DNA from: Parcubacteria group bacterium Gr01-1014_8 | Lineage (GTDB): Bacteria; Patescibacteriota; Minisyncoccia; Phycocordibacterales; UBA2100 | NCBI GenBank assembly: GCA_007376385.1 | Contig: VMGC01000001.1 | Span: forward strand, 320,001-384,000 | DNA: 64,000 bases | Reading direction: 5' to 3' | Shown here: positions 17,834 through 34,604 of the stretch, one piece after another | How the letters are laid out: each line of letters opens with the position of its first letter | How positions within the stretch are numbered: position 1 is the first letter of the stretch | The notes under the pieces: model-generated | What the model was told of the DNA's origin: nothing | The model's input: only the letters and a program-made list of their open reading frames with translations | Databases searched by the model: none | Program-made: the position numbers and the translations under genes

Positions 17834-18386
17834 CTTCTTATAGCTCGTTGACCGTCCGTGCTGTTGTTGCACCAATGTTTGTTTGTGTATGTATCTTCCC
17901 AACGCTGAATAAATGAATTGCCTTGATTCGTGCAACTAAGTTAGCGGCTTCTCGAACCTTGGCCGACATGAAAGACATAAGAGATAATGTGGGCCCACAC
18001 AATTCCATCACTTCACCACGCAGAAATATTCACTCTCCGTGTTTATATGTACTTATGGGGGTACATGTTGAATTGTTGGCCATGCACGAATACGGCAATA
18101 CACTTATAGCTCGCATAATTGCACTGGGGGCTTACTTAATAATATTCATGTGTAAGTCTCGTTTATCTCTGAGTTTTTCTGACGTGTTACTCGAAGCTTA
18201 AATGAATTCGGCAGGGACGTCTTTGATGCGTATTTATTCGGGCCTGGTCCATGTGCATATACGTTCTTGAAAGTCATGAAAAAGGCTGCAAAATTTACTG
18301 AAATCCTGTCATTTTGGTCGAAAATACAGCCATTTTTGACTTTTTTGACTAATTATTGCGACCCAAGGCGGGGGGAAACAGCGCTA

Positions 18387-18440
18387 ACATAGCAAGGTCG
18401 GCGGTTGTCCACGCAAGGTCGGACCTTGCTTATATCTGCG
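18387..18440 (+). repeat. REP-like hairpin repeats (caaggtcgg...ccttg) at 5' end of transposase-like gene
   Basis: acatagcaaggtcggcggttgtccacgcaaggtcggaccttgc shares the motif caaggtcggacc with the repeats flanking the second transposase-like gene at 32819-32861 and 33573-33693. Confidence 0.5.
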
Positions 18441-19130
18441 TATTATACTGATTTGGTGGCAAAACGACGAAAAGTCGCCTATATAGCACCCTTTGATAGT
18501 GATAAGTACTATCACGTGCATAACGACGGAATTGATAGGCGAATACTATTCAGCTCCAAGCAGGATTTTGACCGCTTTGAAGCATATTTGTATCTGCTGA
18601 ATTCCACTGAAAGCCCGCGTGCGGCTAATTTTTTTACAGGCAATCGCCAGAACGAAATATTTCAAACGGGGAGAGGCGATAAATTAATAGCACTCGGAGC
18701 TTATTCGATCACGCCGCATGAATTTCACTTGCTTGCTGTGCCTCTGGTCGATGGGGGGATGGGGAAATTCATGCAGAAGCTTCAGACTGGATACACGATG
18801 TACTTCAATAGCAAGTACCAGCGTATGGGACGCATATTCCAGTCCTCATATAAGGCGGAATCAGCTCGATCAGCCGAGCATCTAAAATATATGTTCTGTT
18901 ATATTCATTTAAATCCTGCGCAGATCTTTGACAAAGAATGGGATTCGACAAACGAGAGGAGCGGACTTGCAACACACATATTGAGGGCAATGAATTATCG
19001 CTACTCGAGCGCAAATGAATATACCTCTCAAAAATTTATCATCACGACGCCGCATGAATTTCCGCCCTACATCAGAAGGGTGAGAGATGCGCGCGCGTAC
19101 TTGAAACTTTGGTCAAAGTTTAAAGAATAG
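18405..19130 (+). CDS. IS200/IS605-family Y1 (HUH) transposase-like protein, RAYT-like; variant HUH motif (HEFH)
   Basis: YYHVHNDGIDRRILF is the N-terminal Y1_Tnp motif. ITPHEFHLLAV aligns to PNHFHLML of the paralog at 32875..33561. FMQKLQTGYTMYFN and FQSSYKA carry the catalytic-Tyr region. About 50% identity to the second copy. Confidence 0.7.
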   Translation: MSTQGRTLLISAYYTDLVAKRRKVAYIAPFDSDKYYHVHNDGIDRRILFSSKQDFDRFEAYLYLLNSTESPRAANFFTGNRQNEIFQTGRGDKLIALGAYSITPHEFHLLAVPLVDGGMGKFMQKLQTGYTMYFNSKYQRMGRIFQSSYKAESARSAEHLKYMFCYIHLNPAQIFDKEWDSTNERSGLATHILRAMNYRYSSANEYTSQKFIITTPHEFPPYIRRVRDARAYLKLWSKFKE

Positions 19131-19320
19131 ACGCACATGCTCATAAAATCTATGCCGGAGTGAATCTGGTACAGTAGCGTCTTGACGTATTTAGAAAGCG
19201 TTGTGTAAGACTCTGTAGGTAAAGCCGGTCGCCTTCACGGCAGTAGACTCTGAGGATATCTCCACAGAGTACGCCAGATATGGAAGACAGTAGCCGTCAG
19301 GGCTAGTATAATCTCGGCAT

Positions 19321-20274
19321 ATGGCTCATGAGATAGTTCTCGGCGATACGACATACATTTCTTCAAAGCGCGCAGCCGAGATTACTGGATATGCCCAAGA
19401 TTATATTGGCCAACTCGCGCGTGCGGGGAAGATAATTGCACGAAGAATTGGAGGCCTTTGGTATGTTCTCGAAGAGTCTTTAAACAACTATAAGGCTGTG
19501 GCAGAACTTTATGTAGCGACTCCACCTCGGATGGATGATTCATACGCTTCTGCCTCTAAGGTTGCTGACACCCTTATTTCATTTGATGGAAAAGAGTATG
19601 TTTCAGCATCAGAAGCGGCTAGGCAGACTGCATATCACCAAGACTATATCGGGCAGCTAGCACGTACCGGCAGGATTTTGTCTAAGCAAGTCGGAGCGCG
19701 TTGGTTCGTCGAATTAAAAGGTCTAAGGGCTCACAAAGCCGAAAAAGATGCTCTCTTGGCTGCGGTGCAGCGTGAATCAGTGGGCCTTGTCCGCCCTGCA
19801 AAGAGCGGTCCCGATGCCGACAACTACAAGGTGCATTTCACATATACAGCTGATGAGAGGGAACTCCTGCCGTCTCTCCTTCGCAAAGATGCCTCAGGCA
19901 GCAATATTCAGCAGGATGCGGCCGAGTTAGAGCACGTAATACCGATTCGTATTGTGCGTGTTCCTCAAAATCCGGCAACAAGCAGCTATTCAGCTCGATC
20001 TGCTACTCGCTCCGTGCGGTTGCGAGTAAGAAAACCCTTATATTATGGTAGCTTATCCGCCGTGCTGGTGACTGTAGTGATTGTCATCGCATTTCATATA
20101 AATATACTAAACGCTGTCCCGATATTCGCGAATACCAACAAGTCGGGCGTTTTAAAAAACACGGCTCTTGCGGGAATAATTATGAACGTCGCAGCGGACT
20201 TTGCGGATCTCGCTCATGAATTGTTAGGGAATAAAGTCATTTACAATCGAGGTTCATACAAGCCCGATTTCTAG
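19321..20274 (+). CDS. Tail-anchored membrane protein with two tandem HTH_17/excisionase(MerR)-like motifs
   Basis: YISSKRAAEITGYAQDYIGQLARAGKIIARRIGGLWYV and YVSASEAARQTAYHQDYIGQLARTGRILSKQVGARWFV are two copies of the same motif. A single TM helix LYYGSLSAVLVTVVIVIAFHINIL sits near the C-terminus, preceded by RLRVRKP (positive-inside). The same motif is at the N-terminus of the downstream 4051-aa protein. Confidence 0.55.
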   Translation: MAHEIVLGDTTYISSKRAAEITGYAQDYIGQLARAGKIIARRIGGLWYVLEESLNNYKAVAELYVATPPRMDDSYASASKVADTLISFDGKEYVSASEAARQTAYHQDYIGQLARTGRILSKQVGARWFVELKGLRAHKAEKDALLAAVQRESVGLVRPAKSGPDADNYKVHFTYTADERELLPSLLRKDASGSNIQQDAAELEHVIPIRIVRVPQNPATSSYSARSATRSVRLRVRKPLYYGSLSAVLVTVVIVIAFHINILNAVPIFANTNKSGVLKNTALAGIIMNVAADFADLAHELLGNKVIYNRGSYKPDF

Positions 20275-20597: not shown

Positions 20598-23500
20598 ATG
20601 TCTGATGAAATCTTTTTTGATGGTGTTCGATATATTTCGGCGCAGGAAGCTGCGACGTCGTTAGGTTTTTCGCGAGATTACATTGCGAGGCTTGCTCGAA
20701 TAGGCAAAGTCAAAGGCCGACAAATAGGAAAGAATTGGTACGTCGAATTTCGCTCAGTTCAAACGTTTGTCCTTGAGCAGGAGTACTTGCAGGGAAAGCG
20801 TAGAAAGGAGCTTGCGGAGAAGCGAGTCTTCGAATACCGCAAGCAGGTTGGCAGTACGGACGAGAGATCGAGCGATATTGTTGCCCCAGTTATTTTTGCC
20901 GATGCTGTATCAGTTTCTGCAAAGCAAAACAAGAGACATGCGGCTATTAAGGCGATGCTCGCGCGTGCAATGTCTCGCCGCGCCGACTTGAAGGTTCTGG
21001 CGCATGCGAACCGCGTTCATACGCCCTCGTTTTTTTCTGTGACGCCTGCCGTTGAGTTTCTGCACAAACTCACTGCTCTCATTACAGCGTTTGTACTGAC
21101 TTTTGGCGCGTATGCTTTTGTTAATGCGGACTACGCTCATTTTGCACTCGATTCTATACGCTCTGCTTCACGGAGTGTTGTTGCTGTCCCGAAATTGGTC
21201 TGGGGAGGTGATGCAGCACGTTGGGGTTCAGATACAGGTGCGCAACTCGCAGCTGTTGCATTGCAGACAGCTCAGTCGGCAAACCAAGCTGAATCATCCA
21301 TTACTTCATTCATGTCATCTGCCGCAAGAAATTTCAACCTTCACGTTAATGACTTATTGTACGGAGTTATTTATCCGAACATTCCTGGCATGGGTTCTTT
21401 CGCGTTCTCATCTGCGCGTGGCCGCGTCGATATTCAAATTGTTCCGTATCGCAGCGATGCGCCTGCAGCAAGATCGGCACCTGCTCCCTTGATCCGAACA
21501 GCAGTGTCAGCTCCAACAACTGTCATCAATCAACCGATAGTGGAACGCATCAGAGAGACGAAGAGCGTTGTCACGCTCGGCGGGATCAGTGAAGAGCTCC
21601 TAGCATCCAAGTTGCTTGAGCTCGACACCAAACTTTCTTCTCGCATGTTGTCGCTCACCTCTTCTAACGCAACGAGCATTACCCAGGTATATAACACCGT
21701 CGGCCAAATGGGTCGTATTGAACATTTAGATGATCTTGATCTTACAAACCCAACGATTACGAGAGGCACGTTGACGAACGTGAGGATCTCATCTCTTTCA
21801 GCCCCTCTCACAATCTCTGACGGCGGCACTGGAACCTCTAGCGCTCCTACGTATGGAAAAGTTCTCTTAGGAAATTCGAGCGGTGCGTATGATCTCGTCG
21901 CGACCTCATCGCTGGGTGTCGGCGGAACACCCGGCGGCTCGAGCACGCAGGTGCAATTTAACGATAGCGGTGCTTTCGGTGCGGATTCCACATTTACTTT
22001 CAACAGCACCAGCAATCTTCTTTCTTTCTCGAGCGCGTCATCTTCGTTGCAGTCTATTTTTGATCGCCTGTATGTCGGCGGAACGGCGACGACGACCATC
22101 TTCGGCTCCGCGACTTCCACCTTCGGGGCTGGTATCGAGACAACTGCCTTGAACGTTACTTCGAATAGCGCGAGCAGCACATTCGCAAACGGTATCTCGC
22201 TCTCTGCCGGGTGTTTCCGCGACGCGAGCGGGGCATGTCTGCAGAGCGCGACATTTGCGTATCTCTTCCCATCGGACGCAACCACAACCAAACTCACGTT
22301 CTCTGGCGGTTTGATCTCGCTCGCTTCAACGACGATCGGCAATGGCACACAAGCGGGAGGACTCACGATCTCCGGCGGCGCGACGACGACAGGGAATCTC
22401 TTGGTGCAGGGCAATGCGACGACGACAAACTTGGCAGTGTCTGGCACCGCATCGTCATCTGCCCTCGTCGCATCAAATTCATTTACGTTCTCGAATATAA
22501 CAGGCTTCCTCAAGGCGACCGCCGGCGTTGTCGCAACGGCCGCCATCAATCTCGCCTCCGACATCACCGGCATTCTTCCTGCTGGAAATGGCGGCACGGG
22601 ATGGGGCAATATCGCAGCGAACACGATCGTGCTTGGGAACGGCACGGGAGCTATCGCAACGACGAGCGCCGGCACCAACGGCCAGATGCTCGCGCTTGTT
22701 TCGGGAGTGCCGACGTGGACCGCGACGACCACATTCTCAGCCCCACTTGTATTTTTCGCAGGCAATGTCTCGATCGCAGCCTCGAATGGCAGCACAGACG
22801 GCTATCTCACTTCCGCTGACTGGACGCTCTTCAACAACAAAGTCTCTTCTTCTTCGCTCTCGACATTCACGGCAGCCTTCAAAGACTGGAACATTACGAC
22901 AAACACATTCGGCCAGTCCTCTCTCGCTCCAACAACAACGCAAAACATCGCAGTCACAGGCGTCGGCACATCCACATTCGCCGGAGGATTAGAAGCGTGG
23001 AGACAAATAGGCGCTCCATACTTCAACGCTACAAGTTCATCCGCAACGTCAACCTTCGCTGGTGGATTAAATGTGCTCGCCATTAACCAAACTGGTTCTG
23101 CGACATCGACGTTTGCGAATGGTTTGCAGCTTTCGAATGGTTGTATCCGATTACCCTCAGGGAGCTGCTTGGCATCTGTCGCAAATTCTTCGATTGATGA
23201 TCTTAGCGACGTCACTATCACCGCCGCCGCATACGGCGACCTTTTGATGCACAACGGGACTGCATGGGTTGATACTGCCACTAGTTCGCTTGGAATATTC
23301 ATTTCAGACACCGTTGGGACACTTGCCGTGGGGAGAGGAGGCACGGGGCTATCATCGACACCAACGTACGGCCAACTGCTCGTCGGAAATGCTTCGAGCG
23401 GCTACACGCTTTCCGCGACATCAACGCTCGGCATCGCGCTCTCTGACACCATAGGAACGCTGGCGGCGACACGGGGTGGTACAGGACTCTCATCCATCAC

Positions 23501-26500
23501 CAACAACCAACTTCTTCTTGGCGGCGCAGGAAACACGGTCACACAGATCGCCACTTCTTCGCTAAACCTTCTCACGACCGACATAATCGAAGGTTCAAGG
23601 CTTTTCTATACGGACAACCGTGTAGACACATACATACATGGGTCAACCACAATTCCAAAGACATACACAGCAAACACGTTCACGGGGGCGAACACATTCA
23701 ACAGTACTTTTACTCTCGGCACGCTCAATGGTCCCTTGCACGCAAACGCCGGCGTCGTCGGTGCGACGACATCTGTTCTCGCGATCTACGGCGGAACCGG
23801 GCAGACCTCGTATTCAACGGGTGACATTCTCTACGCATCCGGCGCAGCCGCACTCTCGAAACTCGGGATCGGCGGTGCGGGAGAGGTTCTAAAAATATCG
23901 GGAGGTGTCCCGACGTGGGGAACTGATTTGACTTCCGGAGGTGGCGCGGATGGCACATGGTCGACGACTACCTCACAAGTCTCTGGCACGTTGATCAATT
24001 ACCCTAACAATGCATCCGACATCGTTGCCATCGGCTCCACGGCGACGACATCTGCGGAGTACTGGTTTGACCCGAATACGACGATTGCCTATCTTTCAGG
24101 AAAAGTTGGCATCAGCACCACCTCCCCCTACTCAAAGTTAACGTTGTGGGGGAGCGCCTCACTATTTGAGGCAGTGAACACATCTTCGACAACGATCTTT
24201 TCAATAGGCCAATCAGGCGCGACAACAACGAATCTCGGAATTTCGGGAATAGCAAGTTCCCTGCTCAAAACAACATCTACCGGAGGAGTGGTTGCTGCGA
24301 TACCCGACACCGATTACCTCAATACCGCAAGTTCGATCGAATTACTTGGCGACGTCGCCGCGATGACGGAGAATTACGGCGATCTCTTGTATTGGAATGG
24401 CTCCGCGTGGGCTGATCTTGCGACGTCATCGCTTGGGATTGCGATCAGTGACACCACGGGAACACTTGCAGTTGCACGAGGCGGCACTGGTCAAACCACA
24501 TTCTCCTCCTCGCAACTTCTCTACGGAAACGGAACCAACGCGCTTTCGTCTGTCGCAACCTCCTCACTCTCCGCAGGAACCGGTGTCACGTTCTCTGGAA
24601 CTGCCGGCTCTCTCGTTGGAGGCACTGCACTCACCATCAATACACCGTGGACCATCTCCGGAAACAACATCTACAACAACAACATTGCAAATGCCGCCAT
24701 CGGCACATCAACTCCCTACGCCACCACCACGATCTGGGGTAACACTGCTTCAAAGATATTTGAAGTCGTTGCAAACGCTTCATCCACCGTATTCTCTGTT
24801 GCACAAAGTGGAGCTACTACAACCAACCTCGGCATTACTGGCGTCACCAATTCGCTCTTGAAGACCACATCAACCGGTGGAGTCGTTGCAGCGGTCGCAG
24901 GCACGGATTACGCGACACTGTCACAAACATTTGGAAAAGCGTGGGAGATCGACGGTAACGGCTTTACCGGATTCCTTGCACCGACAACAACGCAGAAAGT
25001 GTGGATCGGGCAGGCGTCGTCGACGCTTCTATCGGTGAATGGCCCTGCATACTTTGGCTCAACCGCAACCTCCTCATTCTCAACCGCCGGCGTCCTCACG
25101 CTTGCCACCGATCTCGCAGTCACCGAAGGAGGCACCGGAGCTTCCACGCTCACCGGCCTTCTCCAAGGAAACGGCACGTCGGCGTTCACCGCCATCACTG
25201 ATTCATCCACGGTGGGACAGATACTCCGTGTGACTGGTGCATCAACATACGCCTGGGGAGCACTGAACCTTGCAGACACTGACGCCATCACCGGAACGCT
25301 TCCCATCTCCAACGGAGGCACCAACAACACCACCTACTCCACCAACGCGCTCCTCTACTTTGACGGAACATCCATCACTGCTACTTCCACCAGACCCCTC
25401 TACGTCGGCGCTATCAATGCCACCACAACAGCCACCTCCACTTTTGCAGGAGGCATCTCTGTTCTCAACTTCGCACAGACAGGAACAGCAACAAGCACGC
25501 TCGCAAACGGGCTCACCTTAACCGGTGGCTGTGTCATGGTGAACGGAAACTGCATCTCACCCGTTGGGAACTCCTCCATCGAAGATTTGAACGACGTTGC
25601 TGCGATGACGGAGAACTATGGAGACCTTCTTGGATGGAACGGCAGCACGTGGACTGACTTTGCCACCACCTCACTCTTCACCGGTTCCAACGGGCAGATG
25701 CTTGCATACGCGAATGGCGGGTGGACGGGAGTTGCAACAACAACAGCCGGCACTGGTCTCACATACACCGGCTCTGCGTTCAATGTTGACCTTGGTACCT
25801 CTATTAGCGCAGCTGAGATCGCAGACGGCGATCACGGCGACTTCACATACACCAGCGGTGTTGCAGCCATCGATGCAAACGCCGTCACCCTCGGCACCGA
25901 CACAACAGGGAACTACGTTGCAACACTCGCAGATTCAGGCGGAGGAACACTCACCATCTCCAACTCAGGCAGCGAGACAGCGGCAGTGACAGCCTCCCTC
26001 AACCTTGGCAACGCCAACATCTGGACTGGCAAGCAGAACTTCTTTGGTTCTGCATCGTCGACGCTGTTCTCAGCGAACTGGCTCAAAGTCGGTCAAACAG
26101 CATCAACCACATTCGATTCCGCTGGCAACGCAACCATCGGCGGCACCTTGAACGTCACCGGTCAAACTACACTTGCCACTTCACTCACTGGATTACTCAA
26201 AGCAACCGCAGGAGTTGTCTCCTCTGCAACAGAAGGCACTGACTACCTCTCCAATGCACTCCGCGATTGGTCAGTACAAGGCAACGGATACCTTGCACCA
26301 ACGACAACGAGAGGAATCATCGTTGTTGCATCATCCACCATCGGCGCGGGAGGACAAGCGACGGGGCTCACCATTTCAGGAGGCGCGACGACGACGGGGA
26401 ATGCGTATTTTGCAGGGAATGTGGGTGTTGGGACAGCTGCACCAAGTCAAAAATTGCAAGTTGTTAACGGCGCTATTGATATCAACACCGACGACCAGTT

Positions 26501-29500
26501 CTTGTACTTCGGTAGCGGGGACGCCGGCATCAGGGAAAGCGGTGCCAATTTGAAATTTGAGACGTATACGGGCGCTGCACTCACCGAAAAAATGAGAATT
26601 ACTGGCGCAGGCAACGTCGGCATCGGGACCACCACTCCCGCAACCCTCCTCTCCATCGCCGGCACGAGCGGCCTCTTTGCCTCCACGACCGCCACCTCCA
26701 CCTTCCAAGGCGGCGGGATTAACTTGCTCACGGCGGCGGGGAATACGGGATGCTTTGCGGTGAATGGGACGTGTCTTTCCAATACCGCTTCCGGCATCGT
26801 CGGAAGCGGCACCACCGGACAATTTCCGTACTATGCCGCCAACGGCACGACTTTGACGGCGACCTCGACACTTTTCGTCTCGACCGCGAGCAATGTTGGG
26901 ATCGGTGCCACCTCTCCCGCAGCAAAGTTAGACGTCGAAGGTTCCGGTGCGGTCTTGACCGACATCATGGTAGGCAACTCACAGGCCAATGCAAACTTCG
27001 GTATTTCCGCGGCAGGAGTTCCCCACCTTTGGACGAACAATGCCTCGTGGCCGCTTGTGCTCGGTGTCGGTGGCGCAGAGAAAATGAGAGTGCACACGGA
27101 TGGAAACGTAGGGATCGGAGCAGGTGCAACGGGTCCCGGGGCACTCCTCACGGTTGACTCTGGTGCAGCGTCTCTCACGGACATCTTGGTCGGCAACTCG
27201 CAAGCGAACGCGAATTTCGGAATCTCCGCAGCGGGCGTAGCCCATCTGTGGTCAAATAATTCAAGTTGGCCTCTTGCGTTCGGCATTGGAGCCGCGGAAA
27301 ATATGCGAATCCACACGAACGGCAACGTGGGGCTCGGGAACACCTCCCCCTCCTACAAACTCGACGTCGCAGGGTTCATCAACACCGACCAATTCTCCGG
27401 CTACAAGCAGAACGGCACGACCATTCTCTATTCATCTTCGACGCTTGCCACGATGTTCGGCGGCTACCAGGCCGGCAATGGTCAAGTGCAATCAGGAACC
27501 GGACTCTACAATACCGCGTTTGGCTATCAGGCGCTCTTGAGCGCCACGTCGTCTAGCAGAAGCACAGCGGTCGGCTTTTCAGCGCTCGCAAGTCAGGCGA
27601 ATGCCAATGGCAACGATGCGCGTAATACCGCAGTTGGTTCCCAAGCGCTCGGCGGCACAACGTACGGTTACTACAACACAGCTGTCGGCTCTGATGCTCT
27701 CGCTGCCAACACGACCGGATACTTCAACAGCGCATTTGGCCAGGGCGCGCTCACTGGCAATACGACCGGCCGCGATAACATTGCAATTGGCTACAATTCC
27801 GTGAGTCAAAGTACAGCCGCCCTCGAAAATATAGGTATCGGCAACTCCTCGCTTTCAGGAGCGTCGCTCACGGGGGCAGACAACATCGCTATCGGTCGGC
27901 AGGCTGGGAGCGCCATGTCGAGCGGGAGTTACAACATACTGATTGGCCAATATCTCTACAACAGCGGCACCGTCTTTACTGGCTCAAACAACATCATCAT
28001 CGGGCGCGACATCGGCTCGACCGCATCTCCCTTGGTTTCGACGACAACAAGCAACGCGCTCAACATCGGCAACTTGATTTTCGCGACCAGTCTCGGCACG
28101 GCGGACACTCTTTCGACGGGTAATGTGGGTATTGGAACAGCGGCACCGAATTATCAACTTTCAAACAACTCCGCGAGTAATAACCTGGATTCGGGTTCCA
28201 CGGGGCTCTCGACCGCAAGTAGTTTCAACTGGGCGAACAACGGCTCCGGCTACGGTGCAGGATTGTATAACGCAAGCGCCAATTCGGATGCAAACGGGCT
28301 GTTGGTAAAAATTCGCGGTACGGCCTCTACCAACAAAATTCTCTCGCTCGACACGGGCACGACGCAAGCCGGCGCGGGAACAAATGTGCTGACGGTATTA
28401 GGAAGCGGCAACGTCGGCATTGGGACGACGAGTCCGCGCAGCGCCCTCTATTTCCAGGCGAACAGTAGCGATCCATCGTTAACATCATGGACAGGCATAG
28501 GGACGATGCGCGCTAGTACTGGTGTAGAACTTGCGATGGGTGCAGACGATACGACACCTTTCGGCGCGTGGCTGCAAACGAAAGACAGCACAAATGGCGG
28601 TACATCCTATCCACTGCTCCTCAATCCTCTCGGCGGCAACGTTGGCATCGGGACGACTACGCCTCAAACGGCGTTGCATGTAAACGGTATTCTCGCGGCA
28701 ACGCCAAGCTACGGCTTTTACTGGTACAACGGGGCAACATTCAAAGGCGCACTCAAGCATAACTCATCCAACGATAACCTTGAGATATACACCGCCTCTG
28801 ATGGCAGCACGCCGCGGCTCACAGTCCAAAGTTCTTCCGGCAACGTCGGTATCGGGACGACCAGTCCCGTGTCGATACTTGCTGTTGCTGGTGCCAATCC
28901 TGTACTTACCCTCAATCAAACGAGTAGCGGTAATGTTTCTGGCTTAAAGATAACGAATGGAGTAAATACGCTAGGCACATTTACAGTAGCAATAGATACA
29001 GGCGAGGTCAGGATAGGTGGTACGTCTAGCGGCGGTTATTATGATACTTTCTACGCCGATGGTTCGGAAAGGATGAGGATTACAGCAGCAGGCAACGTCG
29101 GCATCGGGACGACGACGCCGCAGTGGCTTTTGAATCCGACTTCGGCAAGCGCATCACAACTTGCCCTTTCGGCGGGGGCGGGCATCGCGCAATGGACGTT
29201 TAGGAATGCAGGCGGGAATTTGTATCTCTCAACAACTACCGTTGCAGGAACCGCAACGACATCGATAAGCGCGCTTGAGATTGCGGGCGGAGGATTAGGA
29301 ACGACAACCGTGAGAGGGCTAAACATCAGCGCTGGCGCAACATCAACGTCTAATGTGGGCTTCTCACTCACGAGCGGATGCTTTGCAACGCCCGCGGGCT
29401 GTATCTCGGGCGTTGGCGATTCTTCCATCGAAGCATTGAACGACGTTGCTGCGATGACGAAAAACTTCGGTGACTTACTGTATTGGAATGGCACAACATG

Positions 29501-32500
29501 GACTGATCTAGCAACGTCGTCGCTTGCGGTAAATTTCTCCGACCTCATTGGTTCAGCGACAGATGCACAGGTTACGAATGCGCTCACAATTTCCGGCGGC
29601 GTGATTTCGGGGACGAACACGGTGTCGGGTACGTGGAATACGACAAACACGCTTACCATCGGGAACGGCGGCGACCGCATCGACGTCAATTCGAGCGGAT
29701 GGGATGTGACGGACAGCGTGATTTCAGGCGCAACCTATCAAGGCAACACGATTGGCACCACCTACGGAGGCACAAATGCGACAGGTTTCAGCAGCCATGC
29801 GCTTCTTGCATTTAACGGTACGAGCATCGTCGCAACGTCTACTATCGGCTTTCAGTCATTTAATGCGACATCAACCACTGCGACGTCGACCATTGCTGGC
29901 GGCCTTGCAGTCGAGACCTCCGGCCTCGTGTACGACTACTCGACCAACCGCGTCGGCATTGGGACGGCGAGCCCTTCCAACAAATTACATATTGCATCAT
30001 CCGCGAATGACTCAACGCTTTTCATACAGCAAACGTCTGGCACACAGCGAGCTGATATCCGGATCGACAACGACGGCGGCTATATGCTTATCGGCCGCGA
30101 AAACAGTGCTGGCGGATCACTTGCGGTCGGTTCGACCGGCTATTTTGGCGTCATGAATGTCAACAATGCCTACGGTCTGCAATTTGGTACCAACAACACC
30201 GTCCGAGCGACGATCGACTCCTCCGGCAACGTCGGCATCGGGACGACGAGTCCAGCGACTTCGCTTTCAGTATCGGGAAGCGGGTACCTCACTGGCGCGC
30301 TTGGCGTAGGCGCGGTCGCGACGGGCTTCACCAACCTTCTCGTCAATGACAACTCAAACACTGCGCACAATAACGATGAGGGTATTGTTGTGAAAAATAC
30401 AAACACTGGCAGTTCTGCCGGCGCTAGCATCAATCTTCGAAACGACGGCACATATCATGGATTCATGCAGATGAATTCTGGGGCAAACACATCATTGGCG
30501 GGAGCAAATAGTTTCAACATCGGTGCTGAGCACAACATTAATTTCGGATTCATCACCAATGATGCGCTTCAGATGACATTGAATACCACCGGTCTCGGCA
30601 TCGGGAACACCTCCCCCTCCTACAAACTCGATGTCGCGGGGTTCATCAACACCGACCAATTCTCCGGCTACAAGCAGGCGGGGAATACTATACTGTATGC
30701 GTCGAGCACGAATGCCACGGTATTTGGTGGACAAGGCGCAGGAAGCGCGATGCAAACGTCTGGAACCGGTGCGTACAACACCGCGTTTGGGTACGGTGCC
30801 CTTACTACAGCGACATCGTCTAGTAGAAGCACTGCAATTGGATTTAATGCACTCGCCAACCAAGCGAACAGTAACGGCAACGACGCACGCAACACGGCCG
30901 TCGGTTCCGACTCTTTGGCGGCAACTACGTACGGCTACTACAACGTCGGCGTCGGCGCCTCGGCGCTCACCGCCAACACGACAGGCGCTTTCAACGTGGC
31001 ACTTGGTGTCGGGGCTTTGCAGACGGCAACATCCACGAACAACGTGACTGCCATCGGCTACAACGCGCTCGGCGCTATGATTTGTTGCGGCCCGGCAGGG
31101 ACGACGCCGGCAAATGTCGTGGTAGGCCACCAAGTCGCTCGTCAAGCGACGACTGCCTACGGTATTACAGGAATCGGGTATGGCGCCTTGGATTCGCTCA
31201 CGACCGGACACGACATCGTGGCACTTGGATCGCAGGCAGGGCATATGGTCACGACTGGCACTAACAGTATATTCCTTGGCGATCTCTCCGGCTTCAAAGA
31301 CAGTGCCGGTGCGAACACCGCCATCACGGGCGACAACAATATCATCATCGGCAATAACCAGCTCATGATCCCGAACGCCGCCGGCTCCAATCAACTCAAC
31401 ATCGGCAACCTCATCTTCGGCACCAGCCTCTCAACCGGCGCGACAGTTTCGACCGGCAACGTCGGCATTGGGACGACGAGCCCACGTTCGATTCTCCACG
31501 CTGTGGCCGGTGCTTCGGGAGTTTTGCCCAACGCAGGCACGACCTTCACTATGGAGAGCAACACGGCCAACTACTTGAGCATGCTCACAGCGAGCAACGC
31601 CGCAAACGGAATTCTCTTTGGTACGCCGACGAGCGCAATCGATGCCGGCATTCTCTACAACAGCAACGGTTCGGCACGAGATTTGCAGTTCCGCACCGGC
31701 GTCAACAACACGCGGATGACGATTGATTCTACCGGCAACGTCGGCATCGGGACGACGACGCCGTTTCGCAAACTTTCTATCACGGATGCAGTATCGACCG
31801 CACAGCAAGCGATCGCGTACGACTCGACGCGCTGGACTGACCTCCTTACAGACTCTGTTGGGGATCTCACCATCAATCCGCAAGGCGACGATGTGTTCTT
31901 GAATGCGGACAATCTTTGGGTGTGTACCGGCGGCTCGTGTCCGAGCGGGACGCCAGCAGGGACGGGTAATTTGATCGTTGAAACGAAATTGGGCGTGGCC
32001 AGTTCGACACCGTTCGCGACGCTCGGTGTGAAGGGTTCTGCTGCATCGACGGCATATACGTTCATGACAACCAACAGTTCCGATTCTCCGACGTTCAACA
32101 TCCAAGATAACGGCAATGTGGGTATTGGTACCACGACGCCCACGAAACAATTTTCCATCTCGAGTCTCCTCTATGTCGGTGCAGGCGGTGCAACAGGAAT
32201 GGGAACAGCGACATCGACTTTCCAAGGTGACATCAAGATAATTGGTAAACTTGATGTCGGTACGATTGACCCGGTCTATACAATAGACGGCACGAAGTAT
32301 GCGACGTATGGTCATTCAACCGTTGGTATCAAAGAAGAGGTAACGGCAAAACTGGCAGTCAACGAGTATGACGAAGCTCGAGATTTGTATCGAACAACAA
32401 TTCGTTTCGATGAGTTGGAAAAGGGAAGCGACCTTTGGCTTTTCTATGAGATCACTCGATTCGGACTTGAATGGGAGCATCTCGTCGTGAACTTGACGCC

Positions 32501-32753
32501 GGCATTCGACGGCCGCGTGTTCTACGAAGAAGATATCGTCGAGAACTCTCTGACAATATACGCCGACAAGTCCGGCTTTGTTTCTGCGCGGCTCATCGCG
32601 GACAGATTCGACGCAGAAACGTGGCCGAACATTCGTCCTGACCAGGACGGAAATACCGAAGGCACGCACAATATAACTTCGAAATTGCCGGGAGGGGTGC
32701 TCCGAGCGGCAGCTACAGCAACCGAAGCCGTCTCATCGTGGTTCAATGAATAA
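20598..32753 (+). CDS. Giant (4051 aa) repetitive Gly/Thr/Ser/Ala/Asn-rich surface fibre protein. N-terminal cytoplasmic HTH_17-like motif and one TM helix (N-in), then about 3880 aa of extracellular beta-rich repeats
   Basis: Single uninterrupted 12,156-nt ORF. N-terminus YISAQEAATSLGFSRDYIARLARIGKVKGRQIGKNWYV. TM helix LTALITAFVLTFGAYAFV at about aa 163-182. GNVGIGTTSP-x-x-KL recurs more than 10 times. The module DVAAMTENYGDLL-WNG--W-DLATSSLGI-ISDT-GTLA--RGGTG occurs 4 times. NTA-G--AL / NTTG beta-roll-like repeats. Two segments have near-identical DNA (about 27340 and about 30604; NTSPSYKLDVAGFINTDQFSGYKQ). Confidence 0.8.
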   Translation: MSDEIFFDGVRYISAQEAATSLGFSRDYIARLARIGKVKGRQIGKNWYVEFRSVQTFVLEQEYLQGKRRKELAEKRVFEYRKQVGSTDERSSDIVAPVIFADAVSVSAKQNKRHAAIKAMLARAMSRRADLKVLAHANRVHTPSFFSVTPAVEFLHKLTALITAFVLTFGAYAFVNADYAHFALDSIRSASRSVVAVPKLVWGGDAARWGSDTGAQLAAVALQTAQSANQAESSITSFMSSAARNFNLHVNDLLYGVIYPNIPGMGSFAFSSARGRVDIQIVPYRSDAPAARSAPAPLIRTAVSAPTTVINQPIVERIRETKSVVTLGGISEELLASKLLELDTKLSSRMLSLTSSNATSITQVYNTVGQMGRIEHLDDLDLTNPTITRGTLTNVRISSLSAPLTISDGGTGTSSAPTYGKVLLGNSSGAYDLVATSSLGVGGTPGGSSTQVQFNDSGAFGADSTFTFNSTSNLLSFSSASSSLQSIFDRLYVGGTATTTIFGSATSTFGAGIETTALNVTSNSASSTFANGISLSAGCFRDASGACLQSATFAYLFPSDATTTKLTFSGGLISLASTTIGNGTQAGGLTISGGATTTGNLLVQGNATTTNLAVSGTASSSALVASNSFTFSNITGFLKATAGVVATAAINLASDITGILPAGNGGTGWGNIAANTIVLGNGTGAIATTSAGTNGQMLALVSGVPTWTATTTFSAPLVFFAGNVSIAASNGSTDGYLTSADWTLFNNKVSSSSLSTFTAAFKDWNITTNTFGQSSLAPTTTQNIAVTGVGTSTFAGGLEAWRQIGAPYFNATSSSATSTFAGGLNVLAINQTGSATSTFANGLQLSNGCIRLPSGSCLASVANSSIDDLSDVTITAAAYGDLLMHNGTAWVDTATSSLGIFISDTVGTLAVGRGGTGLSSTPTYGQLLVGNASSGYTLSATSTLGIALSDTIGTLAATRGGTGLSSITNNQLLLGGAGNTVTQIATSSLNLLTTDIIEGSRLFYTDNRVDTYIHGSTTIPKTYTANTFTGANTFNSTFTLGTLNGPLHANAGVVGATTSVLAIYGGTGQTSYSTGDILYASGAAALSKLGIGGAGEVLKISGGVPTWGTDLTSGGGADGTWSTTTSQVSGTLINYPNNASDIVAIGSTATTSAEYWFDPNTTIAYLSGKVGISTTSPYSKLTLWGSASLFEAVNTSSTTIFSIGQSGATTTNLGISGIASSLLKTTSTGGVVAAIPDTDYLNTASSIELLGDVAAMTENYGDLLYWNGSAWADLATSSLGIAISDTTGTLAVARGGTGQTTFSSSQLLYGNGTNALSSVATSSLSAGTGVTFSGTAGSLVGGTALTINTPWTISGNNIYNNNIANAAIGTSTPYATTTIWGNTASKIFEVVANASSTVFSVAQSGATTTNLGITGVTNSLLKTTSTGGVVAAVAGTDYATLSQTFGKAWEIDGNGFTGFLAPTTTQKVWIGQASSTLLSVNGPAYFGSTATSSFSTAGVLTLATDLAVTEGGTGASTLTGLLQGNGTSAFTAITDSSTVGQILRVTGASTYAWGALNLADTDAITGTLPISNGGTNNTTYSTNALLYFDGTSITATSTRPLYVGAINATTTATSTFAGGISVLNFAQTGTATSTLANGLTLTGGCVMVNGNCISPVGNSSIEDLNDVAAMTENYGDLLGWNGSTWTDFATTSLFTGSNGQMLAYANGGWTGVATTTAGTGLTYTGSAFNVDLGTSISAAEIADGDHGDFTYTSGVAAIDANAVTLGTDTTGNYVATLADSGGGTLTISNSGSETAAVTASLNLGNANIWTGKQNFFGSASSTLFSANWLKVGQTASTTFDSAGNATIGGTLNVTGQTTLATSLTGLLKATAGVVSSATEGTDYLSNALRDWSVQGNGYLAPTTTRGIIVVASSTIGAGGQATGLTISGGATTTGNAYFAGNVGVGTAAPSQKLQVVNGAIDINTDDQFLYFGSGDAGIRESGANLKFETYTGAALTEKMRITGAGNVGIGTTTPATLLSIAGTSGLFASTTATSTFQGGGINLLTAAGNTGCFAVNGTCLSNTASGIVGSGTTGQFPYYAANGTTLTATSTLFVSTASNVGIGATSPAAKLDVEGSGAVLTDIMVGNSQANANFGISAAGVPHLWTNNASWPLVLGVGGAEKMRVHTDGNVGIGAGATGPGALLTVDSGAASLTDILVGNSQANANFGISAAGVAHLWSNNSSWPLAFGIGAAENMRIHTNGNVGLGNTSPSYKLDVAGFINTDQFSGYKQNGTTILYSSSTLATMFGGYQAGNGQVQSGTGLYNTAFGYQALLSATSSSRSTAVGFSALASQANANGNDARNTAVGSQALGGTTYGYYNTAVGSDALAANTTGYFNSAFGQGALTGNTTGRDNIAIGYNSVSQSTAALENIGIGNSSLSGASLTGADNIAIGRQAGSAMSSGSYNILIGQYLYNSGTVFTGSNNIIIGRDIGSTASPLVSTTTSNALNIGNLIFATSLGTADTLSTGNVGIGTAAPNYQLSNNSASNNLDSGSTGLSTASSFNWANNGSGYGAGLYNASANSDANGLLVKIRGTASTNKILSLDTGTTQAGAGTNVLTVLGSGNVGIGTTSPRSALYFQANSSDPSLTSWTGIGTMRASTGVELAMGADDTTPFGAWLQTKDSTNGGTSYPLLLNPLGGNVGIGTTTPQTALHVNGILAATPSYGFYWYNGATFKGALKHNSSNDNLEIYTASDGSTPRLTVQSSSGNVGIGTTSPVSILAVAGANPVLTLNQTSSGNVSGLKITNGVNTLGTFTVAIDTGEVRIGGTSSGGYYDTFYADGSERMRITAAGNVGIGTTTPQWLLNPTSASASQLALSAGAGIAQWTFRNAGGNLYLSTTTVAGTATTSISALEIAGGGLGTTTVRGLNISAGATSTSNVGFSLTSGCFATPAGCISGVGDSSIEALNDVAAMTKNFGDLLYWNGTTWTDLATSSLAVNFSDLIGSATDAQVTNALTISGGVISGTNTVSGTWNTTNTLTIGNGGDRIDVNSSGWDVTDSVISGATYQGNTIGTTYGGTNATGFSSHALLAFNGTSIVATSTIGFQSFNATSTTATSTIAGGLAVETSGLVYDYSTNRVGIGTASPSNKLHIASSANDSTLFIQQTSGTQRADIRIDNDGGYMLIGRENSAGGSLAVGSTGYFGVMNVNNAYGLQFGTNNTVRATIDSSGNVGIGTTSPATSLSVSGSGYLTGALGVGAVATGFTNLLVNDNSNTAHNNDEGIVVKNTNTGSSAGASINLRNDGTYHGFMQMNSGANTSLAGANSFNIGAEHNINFGFITNDALQMTLNTTGLGIGNTSPSYKLDVAGFINTDQFSGYKQAGNTILYASSTNATVFGGQGAGSAMQTSGTGAYNTAFGYGALTTATSSSRSTAIGFNALANQANSNGNDARNTAVGSDSLAATTYGYYNVGVGASALTANTTGAFNVALGVGALQTATSTNNVTAIGYNALGAMICCGPAGTTPANVVVGHQVARQATTAYGITGIGYGALDSLTTGHDIVALGSQAGHMVTTGTNSIFLGDLSGFKDSAGANTAITGDNNIIIGNNQLMIPNAAGSNQLNIGNLIFGTSLSTGATVSTGNVGIGTTSPRSILHAVAGASGVLPNAGTTFTMESNTANYLSMLTASNAANGILFGTPTSAIDAGILYNSNGSARDLQFRTGVNNTRMTIDSTGNVGIGTTTPFRKLSITDAVSTAQQAIAYDSTRWTDLLTDSVGDLTINPQGDDVFLNADNLWVCTGGSCPSGTPAGTGNLIVETKLGVASSTPFATLGVKGSAASTAYTFMTTNSSDSPTFNIQDNGNVGIGTTTPTKQFSISSLLYVGAGGATGMGTATSTFQGDIKIIGKLDVGTIDPVYTIDGTKYATYGHSTVGIKEEVTAKLAVNEYDEARDLYRTTIRFDELEKGSDLWLFYEITRFGLEWEHLVVNLTPAFDGRVFYEEDIVENSLTIYADKSGFVSARLIADRFDAETWPNIRPDQDGNTEGTHNITSKLPGGVLRAAATATEAVSSWFNE

Positions 32754-32818: not shown

Positions 32819-32861
32819 CATCTCAAGGTCATATCGAGGTCGATATCAAGGTCGGACCTCG
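32819..32861 (+). repeat. REP-like repeat cluster, left flank of transposase-like gene
   Basis: atctcaaggtcatatcgaggtcgatatcaaggtcggacctcg: tandem atatc-a/gagg-tcg units with the hairpin cgaggtc/gacctcg. Confidence 0.55.
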
Positions 32862-32874
32862 ATACGCTTGTGTG

Positions 32875-33561
32875 TCACGGTGCCGCCGATTCCACGCGGA
32901 AGTCGAGCCATTCCGAGACCTGCGATTTAAAGTCGAGAGGCGAATCAAAGTACTCCGACAGCGCTGCGGCGTTCACGATGCGGCTCTCCAGACGTTTCTC
33001 ACGAGTGTAATCGTGAAAGCTCGACCAACGGTATCCGTCGAGGAATTTTTCCGCCGCGCGCCGGTTTGCGATGCCGGTTTCTTTCCAAGTCGGCTCGATG
33101 AGCTTGACGGGGTTCAGATGGATATACGAAACGAGGTATTTGAAGTATCGGTCGTCTGCCACGTGCGTCGCCTTATATTTCCCCTGAAAAAGGACGCCGC
33201 TTCGTTTTTGGCGGGTGTTAAAATACATCGTATACCCGGTTTGGAGCTTCTGCATGAATCGGGAAATACCGCCGTTCCTAATCTCACGAAGCATGAGGTG
33301 GAAGTGATTCGGCATGAGGCAGTGCGCGCATATGTCCACGAGCGGTTTTCCCCGATCAAGCGAGAGAAGATGGGGAAGAGAGGTCTGGATTTCGTTGCTG
33401 ATGTGCACGGTGTTCTCGCCGTTTGCAAGAAACAAAAGCGCGAGAAAGCGCTTATGGTCGGGTACAGAGGTAAAGATTTTCCGTTTTTCAGTGCCGCGGT
33501 TGTAGACATGATACGTCTCATCGACAGTAAACGGTATGCGTCTCATCTTCTGTATTTTCAC
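32875..33561 (-). CDS. IS200/IS605-family Y1 (HUH) transposase-like protein, RAYT-like
   Basis: ETYHVYNRGTEKRKIF; HUH in CLMPNHFHLML; FMQKLQTGYTMYFN; LFQGKYKATHV (Tyr); YIHLNP. Flanked on both sides by similar ~40-nt REP-like repeats in direct orientation. Confidence 0.75.
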   Translation of the reverse strand: MKIQKMRRIPFTVDETYHVYNRGTEKRKIFTSVPDHKRFLALLFLANGENTVHISNEIQTSLPHLLSLDRGKPLVDICAHCLMPNHFHLMLREIRNGGISRFMQKLQTGYTMYFNTRQKRSGVLFQGKYKATHVADDRYFKYLVSYIHLNPVKLIEPTWKETGIANRRAAEKFLDGYRWSSFHDYTREKRLESRIVNAAALSEYFDSPLDFKSQVSEWLDFRVESAAP

Positions 33562-33572
33562 TCGCGGTGCCT

Positions 33573-33693
33573 AAATATCAAGGCCCATATCAAGGCCCGA
33601 CCTCGATGGCGACGATGGCGATGGGAATGGAGATACTGTTGCCGACCGGCAGCAATATCTCAAATATCAAGGTCATATCAAGGTCGGACCTCG
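33573..33693 (+). repeat. REP-like repeat clusters, right flank of transposase-like gene
   Basis: aaatatcaaggcccatatcaaggcccgacctcgatgg (33573-33608) and atatctcaaatatcaaggtcatatcaaggtcggacctcgg (33655-33693) are near-copies of the left-flank repeat. Confidence 0.55.
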
Positions 33694-33703
33694 GGGGTGG
33701 TGG

Positions 33704-33961
33704 TTGCGCCTCGCCGCGAGGCGCTACGACACAGAAAAGTGGCCAAATCTACGGCCGGATCAAGACGGCTATACAACGGGCACGCATGTAATTAGTTCGA
33801 AGCCAAAGGCAGGCGAGCAGGCGAGGGATGAGAGCAAAGTGTCGCATGTATCGGCTGTAGTAACTGCGACCAGCGCTATCGCGCAGATCTCGTCATTCGC
33901 GACAAGTACCATTGAATTTGCGACCAGCACATTCTTCAAACTGCTAGCATGGTTTCAGTAA
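33704..33961 (+). pseudogene. Orphan 3' fragment paralogous to the C-terminus of the giant protein
   Basis: Encodes RYDTEKWPNLRPDQDGYTTGTHVISSKPK...TATSAIAQISSF, compared with the giant end RFDAETWPNIRPDQDGNTEGTHNITSKLP...AATATEAVSSWF. DNA identity is about 70%, so it is an old paralog rather than a fresh duplication. It begins inside REP-derived sequence. Confidence 0.4.
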
Positions 33962-34040: not shown

Positions 34041-34604
34041 TTGACAATGCGTAAGCGAGATTTCTTCTACATCGCACTTCTCTGCTTTCTGCCTGCAGCT
34101 GCCTTCGCGGTGACCATGACCGTAAACACTGTCGTGACGGGCAATGTAAGTGTAGTCGGAGCGCTCTCGAAGGGTTCCGGTACGTTCATGATTGATCACC
34201 CGCTTGACCCGAAAAATTCGCTCCTGTACCATTCGTTCCTCGAATCTCCTGACGTCAAGAACATCTACGACGGTGTCGCGAATCTCGACAAGAACGGAGA
34301 GGCCACGATCGCGTTACCAGGTTATTTTCTTGCACTCAACAAGGATTTCAGGTATCTCGCGACATCAATGAGCGGGCCTATGCCGAATCTGCATCTCATG
34401 CGCGGAGTTCGGAGAGAGTGGTTTGTAGGCGACCCTACATTCAGGATAGCTGGGGGCGTACCGGGCGGCACTATCTCCTGGCAGGTAACGGGTATACGCA
34501 AGGATCCTCTCATTGTCGCGAATCCTATTATAGTCGAAGTTGAAAAGGGTGCTGAAGCACTGATATTAAAGGGGGAGTGTCTCTTTGAACTCCTTTGCAG
34601 ATGA
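34041..34604 (+). CDS. Secreted protein, paralog 1 of 3 sharing an unrecognised ~140-aa C-terminal domain
   Basis: Signal peptide MTMRKRDFFYIALLCFLPAAAFA, then GSGTFMIDHPLDPKNSLLYHSFLESPDVKNIYDG...ISWQVTGIRKDP...ANPIIVEV...CLFELLC. Confidence 0.6.
   Translation: MTMRKRDFFYIALLCFLPAAAFAVTMTVNTVVTGNVSVVGALSKGSGTFMIDHPLDPKNSLLYHSFLESPDVKNIYDGVANLDKNGEATIALPGYFLALNKDFRYLATSMSGPMPNLHLMRGVRREWFVGDPTFRIAGGVPGGTISWQVTGIRKDPLIVANPIIVEVEKGAEALILKGECLFELLCR

Follow-up and report, generated by a model that had tools for sequence, protein, structure and literature searches.

The 64,000-nucleotide stretch of contig VMGC01000001.1 of Parcubacteria group bacterium Gr01-1014_8 analysed here, referred to as the window, contains two open reading frames (ORFs) of the IS200/RAYT type (RAYT, REP-associated tyrosine transposase; REP, repetitive extragenic palindrome). 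Copy 1 lies on the forward strand (18405/18456-19130) and copy 2 on the reverse strand (32875-33561); no third Y1 copy was found when the 64-kb window was searched with tblastn. Between them are a helix-turn-helix (HTH) gene (19321-20274, +) and a giant gene encoding 4051 amino acids (aa) (20598-32753, +), and genes for a Wzy_C/TPR protein, SecA and GatB are located 5' of copy 1. The original prediction, made from the letters of the window, had the two genes bracketing the HTH and giant genes, which was confirmed, and in divergent orientation, which was not: the genes are convergent (+ then -).

Copy 1 had been assigned to 18405-19130. An ORF of this extent is present, but the gene most likely starts at the GTG at 18456 (18456-19130, +), and the deposited protein (P0001), 100% identical to that of the window, has 224 aa. 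The TTG at 18405 was rejected as a start, as the 17 extra codons consist of a hairpin (18413-18429) and a TATACT box (18444-18449), making 18405-18455 noncoding, and homologues do not reach there. The HUH site reads P-H-E-F-H in copy 1 versus P-N-H-F-H in copy 2. Because the alignment is ungapped at this point, the first HUH His has been replaced by Glu, with a His one residue earlier; the previously noticed difference between H-E-F-H and H-F-H is real, but it is a substitution and no Glu has been inserted. The second His, the catalytic Tyr and the Asn (Y-I-H-L-N-P) are retained, giving the tetrad E89-H91-Y149-N153 (EHYN), and Q129 is kept as well. Further changes affect positions that are invariant in the intact clade described below, namely Y20 to H and R22 to D in the N-terminal strand motif, N85 to H, and K153 to Q. 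With Pfam Y1_Tnp (PF01797), copy 1 reaches 18.0 bits, short of the cut-off of 23 bits, and with NCBIfam REP_Tyr_transpos (NF047646) it reaches 21.7 bits, where 80 bits are required. Its AlphaFold2 model is confident (pLDDT 92.3), and the top PDB match in Foldseek is 4er8_A, the E. coli REP-associated transposase with REP hairpin, followed by the IS608, ISDra2 and IS200 TnpA proteins. PDB sequence searches with copy 2 alone and with a 43-sequence profile returned nothing relevant, and the family was identified by fold comparison only.

Copy 2 encodes a RAYT-like protein of 228 aa (223 aa in the deposited call) with the tetrad H86-H88-Y146-N150. None of these four residues varies among its 120 closest relatives, and HHYN is found in 80 of 80 copy-2-type genes at the loci fetched for comparison (L numbers below). 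Copy 2 exceeds the Pfam Y1_Tnp cut-off with 35.7 bits and, like copy 1, stays below that of NCBIfam REP_Tyr_transpos (43.6 bits).

The 120 sequences most closely related to copy 2 all have the Tyr of S/C-Y-I-H-L-N-P, and for this reason Y149 of copy 1, counted from the 18456 start, and Y146 of copy 2 are regarded as the catalytic residues. The Tyr of F-Q-x-x-Y-K-A (F-Q-G-K-Y-K-A in copy 2) was rejected as a candidate, being Phe in 92 of the 120 intact relatives. The earlier statement that the region of the catalytic Tyr is conserved thus holds for the true Tyr and the Asn in Y-I-H-L-N-P, which both copies keep. Y-x3-N-P is the signature of class 2 (TnpA_REP-like) proteins, and its Asn (N119 in E. 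coli) is a metal ligand, while Y-x3-Q marks IS200-type enzymes (PMC6006769). Both copies carry Y-x3-N-P. A complete HuH motif together with the Tyr in this context is present in copy 2; copy 1 has E-F-H, without the first His. The Y1/HUH fold that characterises RAYT/TnpA_REP proteins was found for copy 1 with AlphaFold2 and Foldseek. Both ORFs are Y1/HUH proteins of the RAYT (TnpA_REP) type, as had been proposed, with the class-2 signature and the structural match to 4er8 in support.

The two copies are less similar than the identity of about 50% first given. BLASTP aligns them at 37% over 196 aa, global identities are 35% (aa) and 45.6% (nucleotides), and their longest exact match is 15 bp. 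Each forms a 90% cluster with one member on one contig, and neither is more than 64% identical to its nearest database relative. There are no near-identical Y1 copies within the window. These results support the view that the genes are old paralogues and not recently multiplied insertion sequence (IS) copies.

The 120 best homologues of copy 1 all come from Patescibacteria metagenomes or metagenome-assembled genomes (MAGs), the taxonomic labels of some MAGs ("Saccharibacteria" Third Party Annotation assemblies) being probably unreliable. Among copy 1 and these homologues (n = 121), 55 have the first His, 88 the second His and 51 the catalytic Tyr. Other residues are near-invariant (N23, G25, F32, F90, H151 and P154), and in an alignment of 43 sequences, 15 columns are invariant and about 40 nearly so. 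Neighbour joining of 240 relatives placed copy 1 inside a clade of 88 leaves. The His-His-Tyr triad is intact in only four of these and in none of the 44 nearest to copy 1, of which just five keep the catalytic Tyr. Every member of the copy 2 clade is intact. The same picture emerges at the fetched loci, where HHYN occurs in 4 of 15 copy-1-type genes; the other 11 are not intact, and some lack all four residues. The tetrads of the syntenic orthologues range from HHYN (L003, L017) via EHYN (window), EHYH, EHEN, EHDQ, ERRG, SLRA, RYRH, RFSH and NHLA to RDKM.

The intact clade has 67 positions with an invariance of at least 95%. In the copy-1 clade, conservation is still 80% or higher at 32 of them and less than 50% at 28. 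The latter 28 include the tetrad and residues adjacent to it in the sequence motifs (Y20, R22, T24, K26, C81-M83, N85, Q126, G127, Y139 and K153). The 32 kept positions include the helix F-M-Q-K-L-Q-T-x-Y-T-M-Y-F-N, D-x-x-R-F, the C-terminal Y-x-x-S-S and a W. This is the residue pattern expected if catalysis was given up and the fold, along with some other activity, was retained. Copy 1 itself represents an early stage of catalytic decay.

The position of copy 1 is conserved, too. All five metagenome look-ups of its relatives (43-52% identity) showed GatB, the Y1-like protein, an HTH_17 protein of 304-334 aa and a very large protein, in three of the five with Wzy_C/TPR and SecA upstream as well. 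A scan of GTDB species-representative genomes yielded 80 loci. The order secA-gatB-[Y1]-HTH-giant gene was found in at least 12 genomes besides that of the window, and every copy-1-type gene with a degenerate tetrad sits at the gatB-HTH-giant locus. The HTH_17 gene follows the Y1 gene in L001, L002, L003, L006, L007, L012, L014 and L021, all of which have the canonical order and, apart from L003 (HHYN), a degenerate tetrad; the N-terminus of the giant protein was recovered downstream in syntenic loci. Variants of the arrangement exist. The Y1 gene is flipped to the other side of gatB in L016, L019 and L017, the last with an intact tetrad, and in L013 (HHYD) it directly precedes an HTH-fronted giant gene. 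A full-length Y1 ORF with 43-72% identity is present in every syntenic genome examined. In 10 genomes, the pairwise identities of Y1 and GatB correlate (Mantel r = 0.545, p = 0.001). Judged by gene order and sequence divergence, copy 1 appears to be a positionally fixed, vertically inherited RAYT descendant. Its suspected domestication gains stronger backing than originally proposed from the synteny in many genomes, the co-divergence with GatB and the catalytic loss in its clade.

A REP-like motif had been reported at the 5' end of copy 1. The exact 12-mer CAAGGTCGGACC is indeed there, upstream of the gene, and occurs exactly three times on the + strand of the window, at 18414 and in the flanks of copy 2 at 32847 and 33679. 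At copy 1, it is part of a palindrome with an 8-bp stem, GCAAGGTC-G-GACCTTGC (18413-18429, +), preceded by an extra half-site, ATAGCAAGGTC (18389-18399, +), that matches GACCTTGATAT on the - strand with one mismatch. The same type of palindrome is found 5' of the orthologues in L001, L002, L003 and L013, and an equivalent half-site precedes it in L001, L002, L006 and L007. Copy 2 is flanked on both sides (all on the - strand). Downstream, in the space that separates copy 2 from the giant gene convergent with it (32820-32864), the hairpin TATCGAGGTC-C-GACCTTGATA (32844-32864) is followed by GACCTYGATAT direct repeats (32820-32853). The proximal upstream element (33575-33607) combines the hairpin ATCGAGGTC-G-GGCCTTGAT (33587-33607) with one GGCCTTGATAT repeat, and the distal one (33664-33693) consists of the hairpin CGAGGTC-C-GACCTTG (33679-33693) with GACCTTGATAT repeats and forms the outer boundary of the inserted unit discussed below. 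Allowing at most one mismatch, the GACCTTGATAT unit occurs eight times in the 64-kb window, versus 0.86 expected, and only beside the two genes; dispersed hairpins away from them were not found in the window.

Copy-2-type genes have a palindrome with the core (C/G)(A/G)AGG-N5-CCT(T/C)(G/C) just upstream and often just downstream, in 68 and 40 of 80 genes, respectively, by the criteria of one scan. The lower stem varies by locus and yet matches between both flanks of one gene, mostly in inverted orientation. Covariation was scored at the five outer stem positions of sequences selected for the core AGG-N5-CCT only. Near Y1 genes, Watson-Crick pairing at these positions amounts to 63-83% and involves all four types of pair, versus 36-48% elsewhere. 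By strict criteria, 142 family palindromes lie no more than 300 bp from a Y1 gene and 44 elsewhere (about 1.27 of 1.4 Mb), an enrichment of about 30-fold. The 44 solo hairpins, six of them in L008, compare with an estimated six or so expected in about 1.27 Mb. An exact 18-mer of the window hairpin occurs on 12 metagenome contigs, 10 of which have no detected Y1 gene. The "REP-like motif" of the window thus seems to be the cognate hairpin of the family, with covarying stems. Hairpins lie on both sides of copy 2 and only upstream of copy 1, and copy-1-type genes in general have an upstream hairpin at most, the downstream and internal copies being lost. The hairpins follow the REPtron logic described for RAYTs (PMC6006769; PMC5581495), although dispersed copies are few and a GT[AG]G foot is not evident.

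Two further observations concern these hairpins. Inverted doublets without a detected Y1 gene, for example GAGGTCCGACCTTGATATATCAAGGTCGGACCTTGC, are present at L097:1102-1140 and L099:1230-1268 and resemble REPIN-like doublets. In 18 of 80 copy-2-type genes, the Y1 ORF itself contains a third hairpin at a distance of about 125-180 nt from the start; its in-frame translation is Q-G-x-T-L (CAA GGT nnn ACC TTG), and examples are L010:10150-10178, L028:3388-3416, L065:10147-10175, L078:10123-10151 and L029:10141-10169. As the internal stem agrees with those of the hairpins that flank the gene at each locus, the coding sequence and the flanking hairpins appear to evolve in concert. The corresponding position is degenerate in both window copies (I-Q-T-S-L-P-H-L-L in copy 2 and R-Q-N-E-I-F-Q in copy 1).

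A -10-like box, TATACT (18444-18449, +), is situated 14 nt past the copy 1 hairpin and 6 nt ahead of the GTG at 18456 and would be part of the promoter of the gene. A similar layout, with 12-14 nt between the hairpin and TA(T/C)ACT (often preceded by TG) and 6-10 nt from there to the start, recurs in L002, L006, L007, L008, L010 and L011. A box of this kind (TATACT, TACACT or TATAAT, about 6-10 nt before the start) was also seen at 19307-19323, 5' of the HTH gene. Such spacing suggests that the Y1 and HTH genes produce leaderless or near-leaderless transcripts from promoters that, at the Y1 genes, would be overlapped by the hairpin.

Copy 2 differs from its surroundings in its GC content at third codon positions (65% versus 44-59% in the adjoining genes). 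The matching site in L001 is empty: there, the orthologous giant gene is followed by 27 bp and then by the orthologue of window gene 34041-34604. The window therefore holds about 1.26 kb of extra DNA at this place. About 10 nt beyond the outer hairpin of copy 2 lies an orphan relic of the 3' end of the giant gene, 36 codons long (RLAARRYDTEKWPNLRPDQDG..., 33707-33814, +) and inside ORF 33704-33961. It shows 64% identity to residues 3998-4033 of the giant protein (tblastn, E = 2e-10) and is also homologous to the C-termini of the giant proteins in L001 and L002. Given this relic together with the empty site in L001, copy 2 and the relic would seem to constitute a lineage-specific insertion or rearrangement scar of about 1.26 kb. 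In L008 and L011, too, a copy-2-type gene and a giant gene converge. The suggestion that the two copies mark a recombination hotspot generating surface-protein variation retains only a weak hint in this single relic; it records one earlier rearrangement at the giant gene's 3' end and does not show ongoing variation.

Taken together, copy 1 is probably a locus-fixed RAYT descendant whose catalysis is eroding and which has kept a function other than cleavage, and copy 2 an intact gene inserted later. The conserved function of copy 1 would no longer need DNA cleavage. The activity most likely to have been retained is binding of the cognate palindrome, which lies 14 nt 5' of the gene's own -10 box. 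Copy 1 may thus regulate its own gene or serve as a hairpin-binding factor, and it possibly competes with active paralogues that recognise the same core, such as copy 2. Copy 2, in turn, would be a catalytically intact member of a Patescibacteria-wide family with the hairpin-gene-hairpin layout of a REPtron, and this lineage probably acquired it by insertion at the giant gene's 3' end, which left a duplicated 3' fragment of that gene behind.

Several points weigh against this reading. The tree was built from distances by simple neighbour joining, with an E. coli RayT sequence as outgroup whose Y115 and N119 positions agree with PMC6006769. The gene and hairpin counts for the window cover 64 kb of a contig of roughly 408 kb. 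Intact copy-2-type genes are present in opposite orientation in the gatB-HTH interval of L024, L038 and L041, which makes this interval a favoured landing place as well, and vertical descent may not be the whole reason for the synteny, some of which could stem from a preferred insertion site. The regulatory role of copy 1 is purely inferred. Finally, the position of the first His is occupied by Glu or Asp in 35 of the 88 clade members (28 Glu, 7 Asp). Glu can coordinate a metal, and copy 1, with His, Tyr and Asn kept, could for this reason still be an active nuclease or keep weak activity.

This last point leads to the most serious alternative, which regards copy 1 as a still active nuclease or transposase with a variant metal site (Glu-x-His plus Asn), and therefore as an unusual but functional RAYT. 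H91, Y149, N153 and Q129 are all in place, the acidic residues are the commonest replacement of the first His, and the upstream cognate hairpin is intact. Against an active enzyme stand the four further changes at invariant positions (Y20, R22, N85 and K153), the missing downstream hairpin and the fate of the closest 44 relatives, with no intact triad and only five Tyr residues. Moreover, syntenic orthologues apparently function without any of the four residues. An active copy 1 is considered rather unlikely.

It is far less probable still that copy 1 is a functionless pseudogene slowly decaying in a region that is rarely deleted. The erosion of its catalytic residues and its scores below the Pfam and NCBIfam cut-offs would fit such a fate. 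The ORFs are full-length in all syntenic genomes examined, with identities of 43-72%, though, the 43-sequence alignment retains its invariant and nearly invariant columns, nearly half of the core (32 of 67 positions) is kept at 80% or more, and the structure model is confident. Patescibacteria genomes are small and presumed to be compact, and a dead gene of 0.7 kb is accordingly not expected to last in them.

Another explanation to which little credence can be given sees the palindromes as ordinary transcription signals, i.e., terminators or operators of other regulators, unrelated to the Y1 proteins. The 18413-18429 hairpin and its T-rich tail look like a terminator and were flagged as such by a terminator scan, the same hairpin overlaps the -35 region of the inferred promoter, and the downstream hairpin of copy 2 is placed between two convergent genes. 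Ordinary signals would not account for the roughly 30-fold enrichment near Y1 genes, for locus-specific stems that match between the flanks of one gene, for the in-frame third copy inside many ORFs or for a family-wide apical core, which is typical of a cognate protein-hairpin pair such as RAYT and REP.

The original prediction also considered the copies as the ends of a composite unit that permits inversion, excision or mobilisation of the 14-kb module of HTH and giant genes, but this is hardly credible: the two genes are inverted around the module, CAAGGTCGGACC is on the same strand at 18414 and 32847, where an active Y1 protein like copy 2 could in principle act on both, and the orphan giant-gene fragment shows that a rearrangement did occur at copy 2, yet homologous inversion is judged to need more than an identity of 45.6% with a longest match of 15 bp, at least 12 other genomes have the module in the same place beside gatB, L001 and L002 lack the downstream partner, and relatives of copy 1 have lost catalytic residues as well as the 3' hairpin. 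Recombination between the copies by homology was rejected for the same 15-bp limit. The copies lie near each other since such genes often settle beside this locus and beside giant genes, and they are not a functional inverted-repeat pair.

The preferred reading of copy 1 as a locus-fixed descendant with eroding catalysis can be extended, tentatively, to a more specific proposal. In one Patescibacteria lineage, a RAYT nuclease may have been exapted to a non-catalytic hairpin binder permanently tied to the gatB-HTH-giant surface-protein locus, serving as an autoregulator, an insulator or a decoy against active paralogues such as copy 2. The hairpins, among them the in-frame Q-G-x-T-L copy of many intact genes, would be kept identical within a locus by the cut-and-paste activity of the enzyme. 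This is possible, though rather doubtful. If true, homogenisation of the hairpins would amount to a self-targeting feedback circuit of a kind not described for RAYTs.

Independently of this proposal, one orthologous site displays the passage from an intact tetrad via partial loss, as in the window, to complete loss, with the rest of the protein conserved. This natural series separates the non-catalytic function of the family, presumably hairpin binding, from cleavage, and the locus supplies concrete proteins and a 17-nt DNA target for testing. It also adds the Candidate Phyla Radiation, with its small genomes, to the groups in which RAYT/REP-like systems are seen. The recurrent siting of such genes beside giant surface-protein genes, together with the copy 2 scar, may bear on how giant genes change.

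The remaining features of the locus concern its neighbouring genes. The conserved 3' neighbour of copy 1 encodes a 317-aa protein with two HTH_17-like domains (Pfam HTH_17, 29.6 bits). By eye, these tandem HTH_17/excisionase-like domains are followed by an apparent hydrophobic segment near the C-terminal third. The giant protein, the third member of the conserved neighbourhood, has an N-terminal HTH_17-like domain (20598-20800; weak HTH_17 match) related to those of the 317-aa protein. It is odd for putative DNA-binding domains to stand at the front of what seem to be membrane or surface proteins, and the syntenic loci keep this pairing. A literature search for Parcubacteria giant proteins with an HTH found nothing relevant. 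In PADLOC, the 317-aa protein gave only a weak HTH match (mad1), and neither Y1 protein matched a defence system.

The stretch from gatB to the copy 1 hairpin region (17834-18388, about 555 bp) has no convincing ORF, and its GC content is 42.6%, versus a window mean of 50.2%. The 620-bp spacer between gatB and copy 1 showed no conservation in blastn and tblastx comparisons with related loci, and hence no hidden gene or RNA was found in it. An Rfam scan of 17.7-20.7 kb with E values up to 1 detected no RNA family. The corresponding spacer holds a 23S_rRNA_IVP-family gene in L001 and small ORFs in L002. In the spacer between the Y1 and HTH_17 genes, TCTCCACAGAG at about 19262-19272 contains the motif TCCACAG(A/G)G, which is at the same position in L001, L002 and L003. 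On the 3' side of the giant gene (34041-36647), paralogous genes of 187, 446 and 243 aa share a C-terminal domain of about 150 aa, with an I-D-H-P-L-D-P-x-N motif in the 187-aa member and a weak Gly_rich_2 match in the 446-aa member. The same paralogous family is tandemly repeated in the window and in relatives (L001:16210-17332, L078:7378-11382).

Among known systems, the window family comes closest to the RAYTs. Both copies have the Y1/HUH fold and the class-2 Y-x3-N-P context, cognate hairpins accompany the gene, on both sides of copy 2 and only upstream of copy 1, and co-vary with it in sequence, and some solo hairpins and inverted doublets occur elsewhere. The C-terminal W/Y-x-x-S-S motif of the window family also resembles W-P-F-S-T of E. 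coli RayT. As with RAYTs, which are characterised by low copy number, the absence of near-identical duplicates and housekeeping-like vertical inheritance (PMC5581495), copy numbers are low, near-identical duplicates are missing, and copy 1 is inherited in a housekeeping-like manner; the part that RAYTs play in housekeeping is called unclear by the authors of that study. The differences begin with the NCBIfam REP_Tyr_transpos scores, which are far under the cut-off for both copies. A GT[AG]G guide tetranucleotide is not evident at the hairpin foot; visual inspection of 160 aligned hairpin flanks revealed none that was conserved 5' of the stem. Further differences are the several divergent paralogues per genome, the in-frame hairpin inside the ORF of many members and the lack of a dispersed hairpin population in the window. 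The copy-1 clade has also lost catalytic residues, whereas all TnpA_Y1 sequences analysed by others share the HuH and Y motifs (PMC6006769).

The TnpA proteins of the IS200/IS605 group (IS200, IS608, ISDra2) have the same fold as the window family and belong to the same Pfam family, Y1_Tnp, for which copy 2 is above and copy 1 below the cut-off; the unit is again small, about 0.75-0.9 kb, with hairpins as its bounds. They differ in that the window copies have Y-x3-N-P and not Y-x3-Q. IS copies are multiple and near-identical (PMC5581495), whereas each gene is unique within the 64-kb window, with each 90% cluster on a single contig, and copy 1 is positionally fixed. In addition, the flanking hairpins on both sides are one palindrome rather than distinct left and right ends, and there is no tnpB gene. 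Subclass 2.6 and class 3 of the TnpA_Y1 proteins (Quentin et al., 2018) also lack the GT[AG]G consensus and have atypical flanking secondary structures (PMC6006769), a likeness that goes by description only. Subclass 2.6 has been described mostly from Bacteroidetes (PMC6006769), while the window family is from Patescibacteria. Literature searches on RAYTs in Patescibacteria and on HUH/IS200 proteins in the Candidate Phyla Radiation found no report of RAYT/REP-like systems there. The system at this locus is thus of a known, RAYT-like kind, and what is new is a Patescibacteria lineage with a locus-fixed, catalytically decaying branch.

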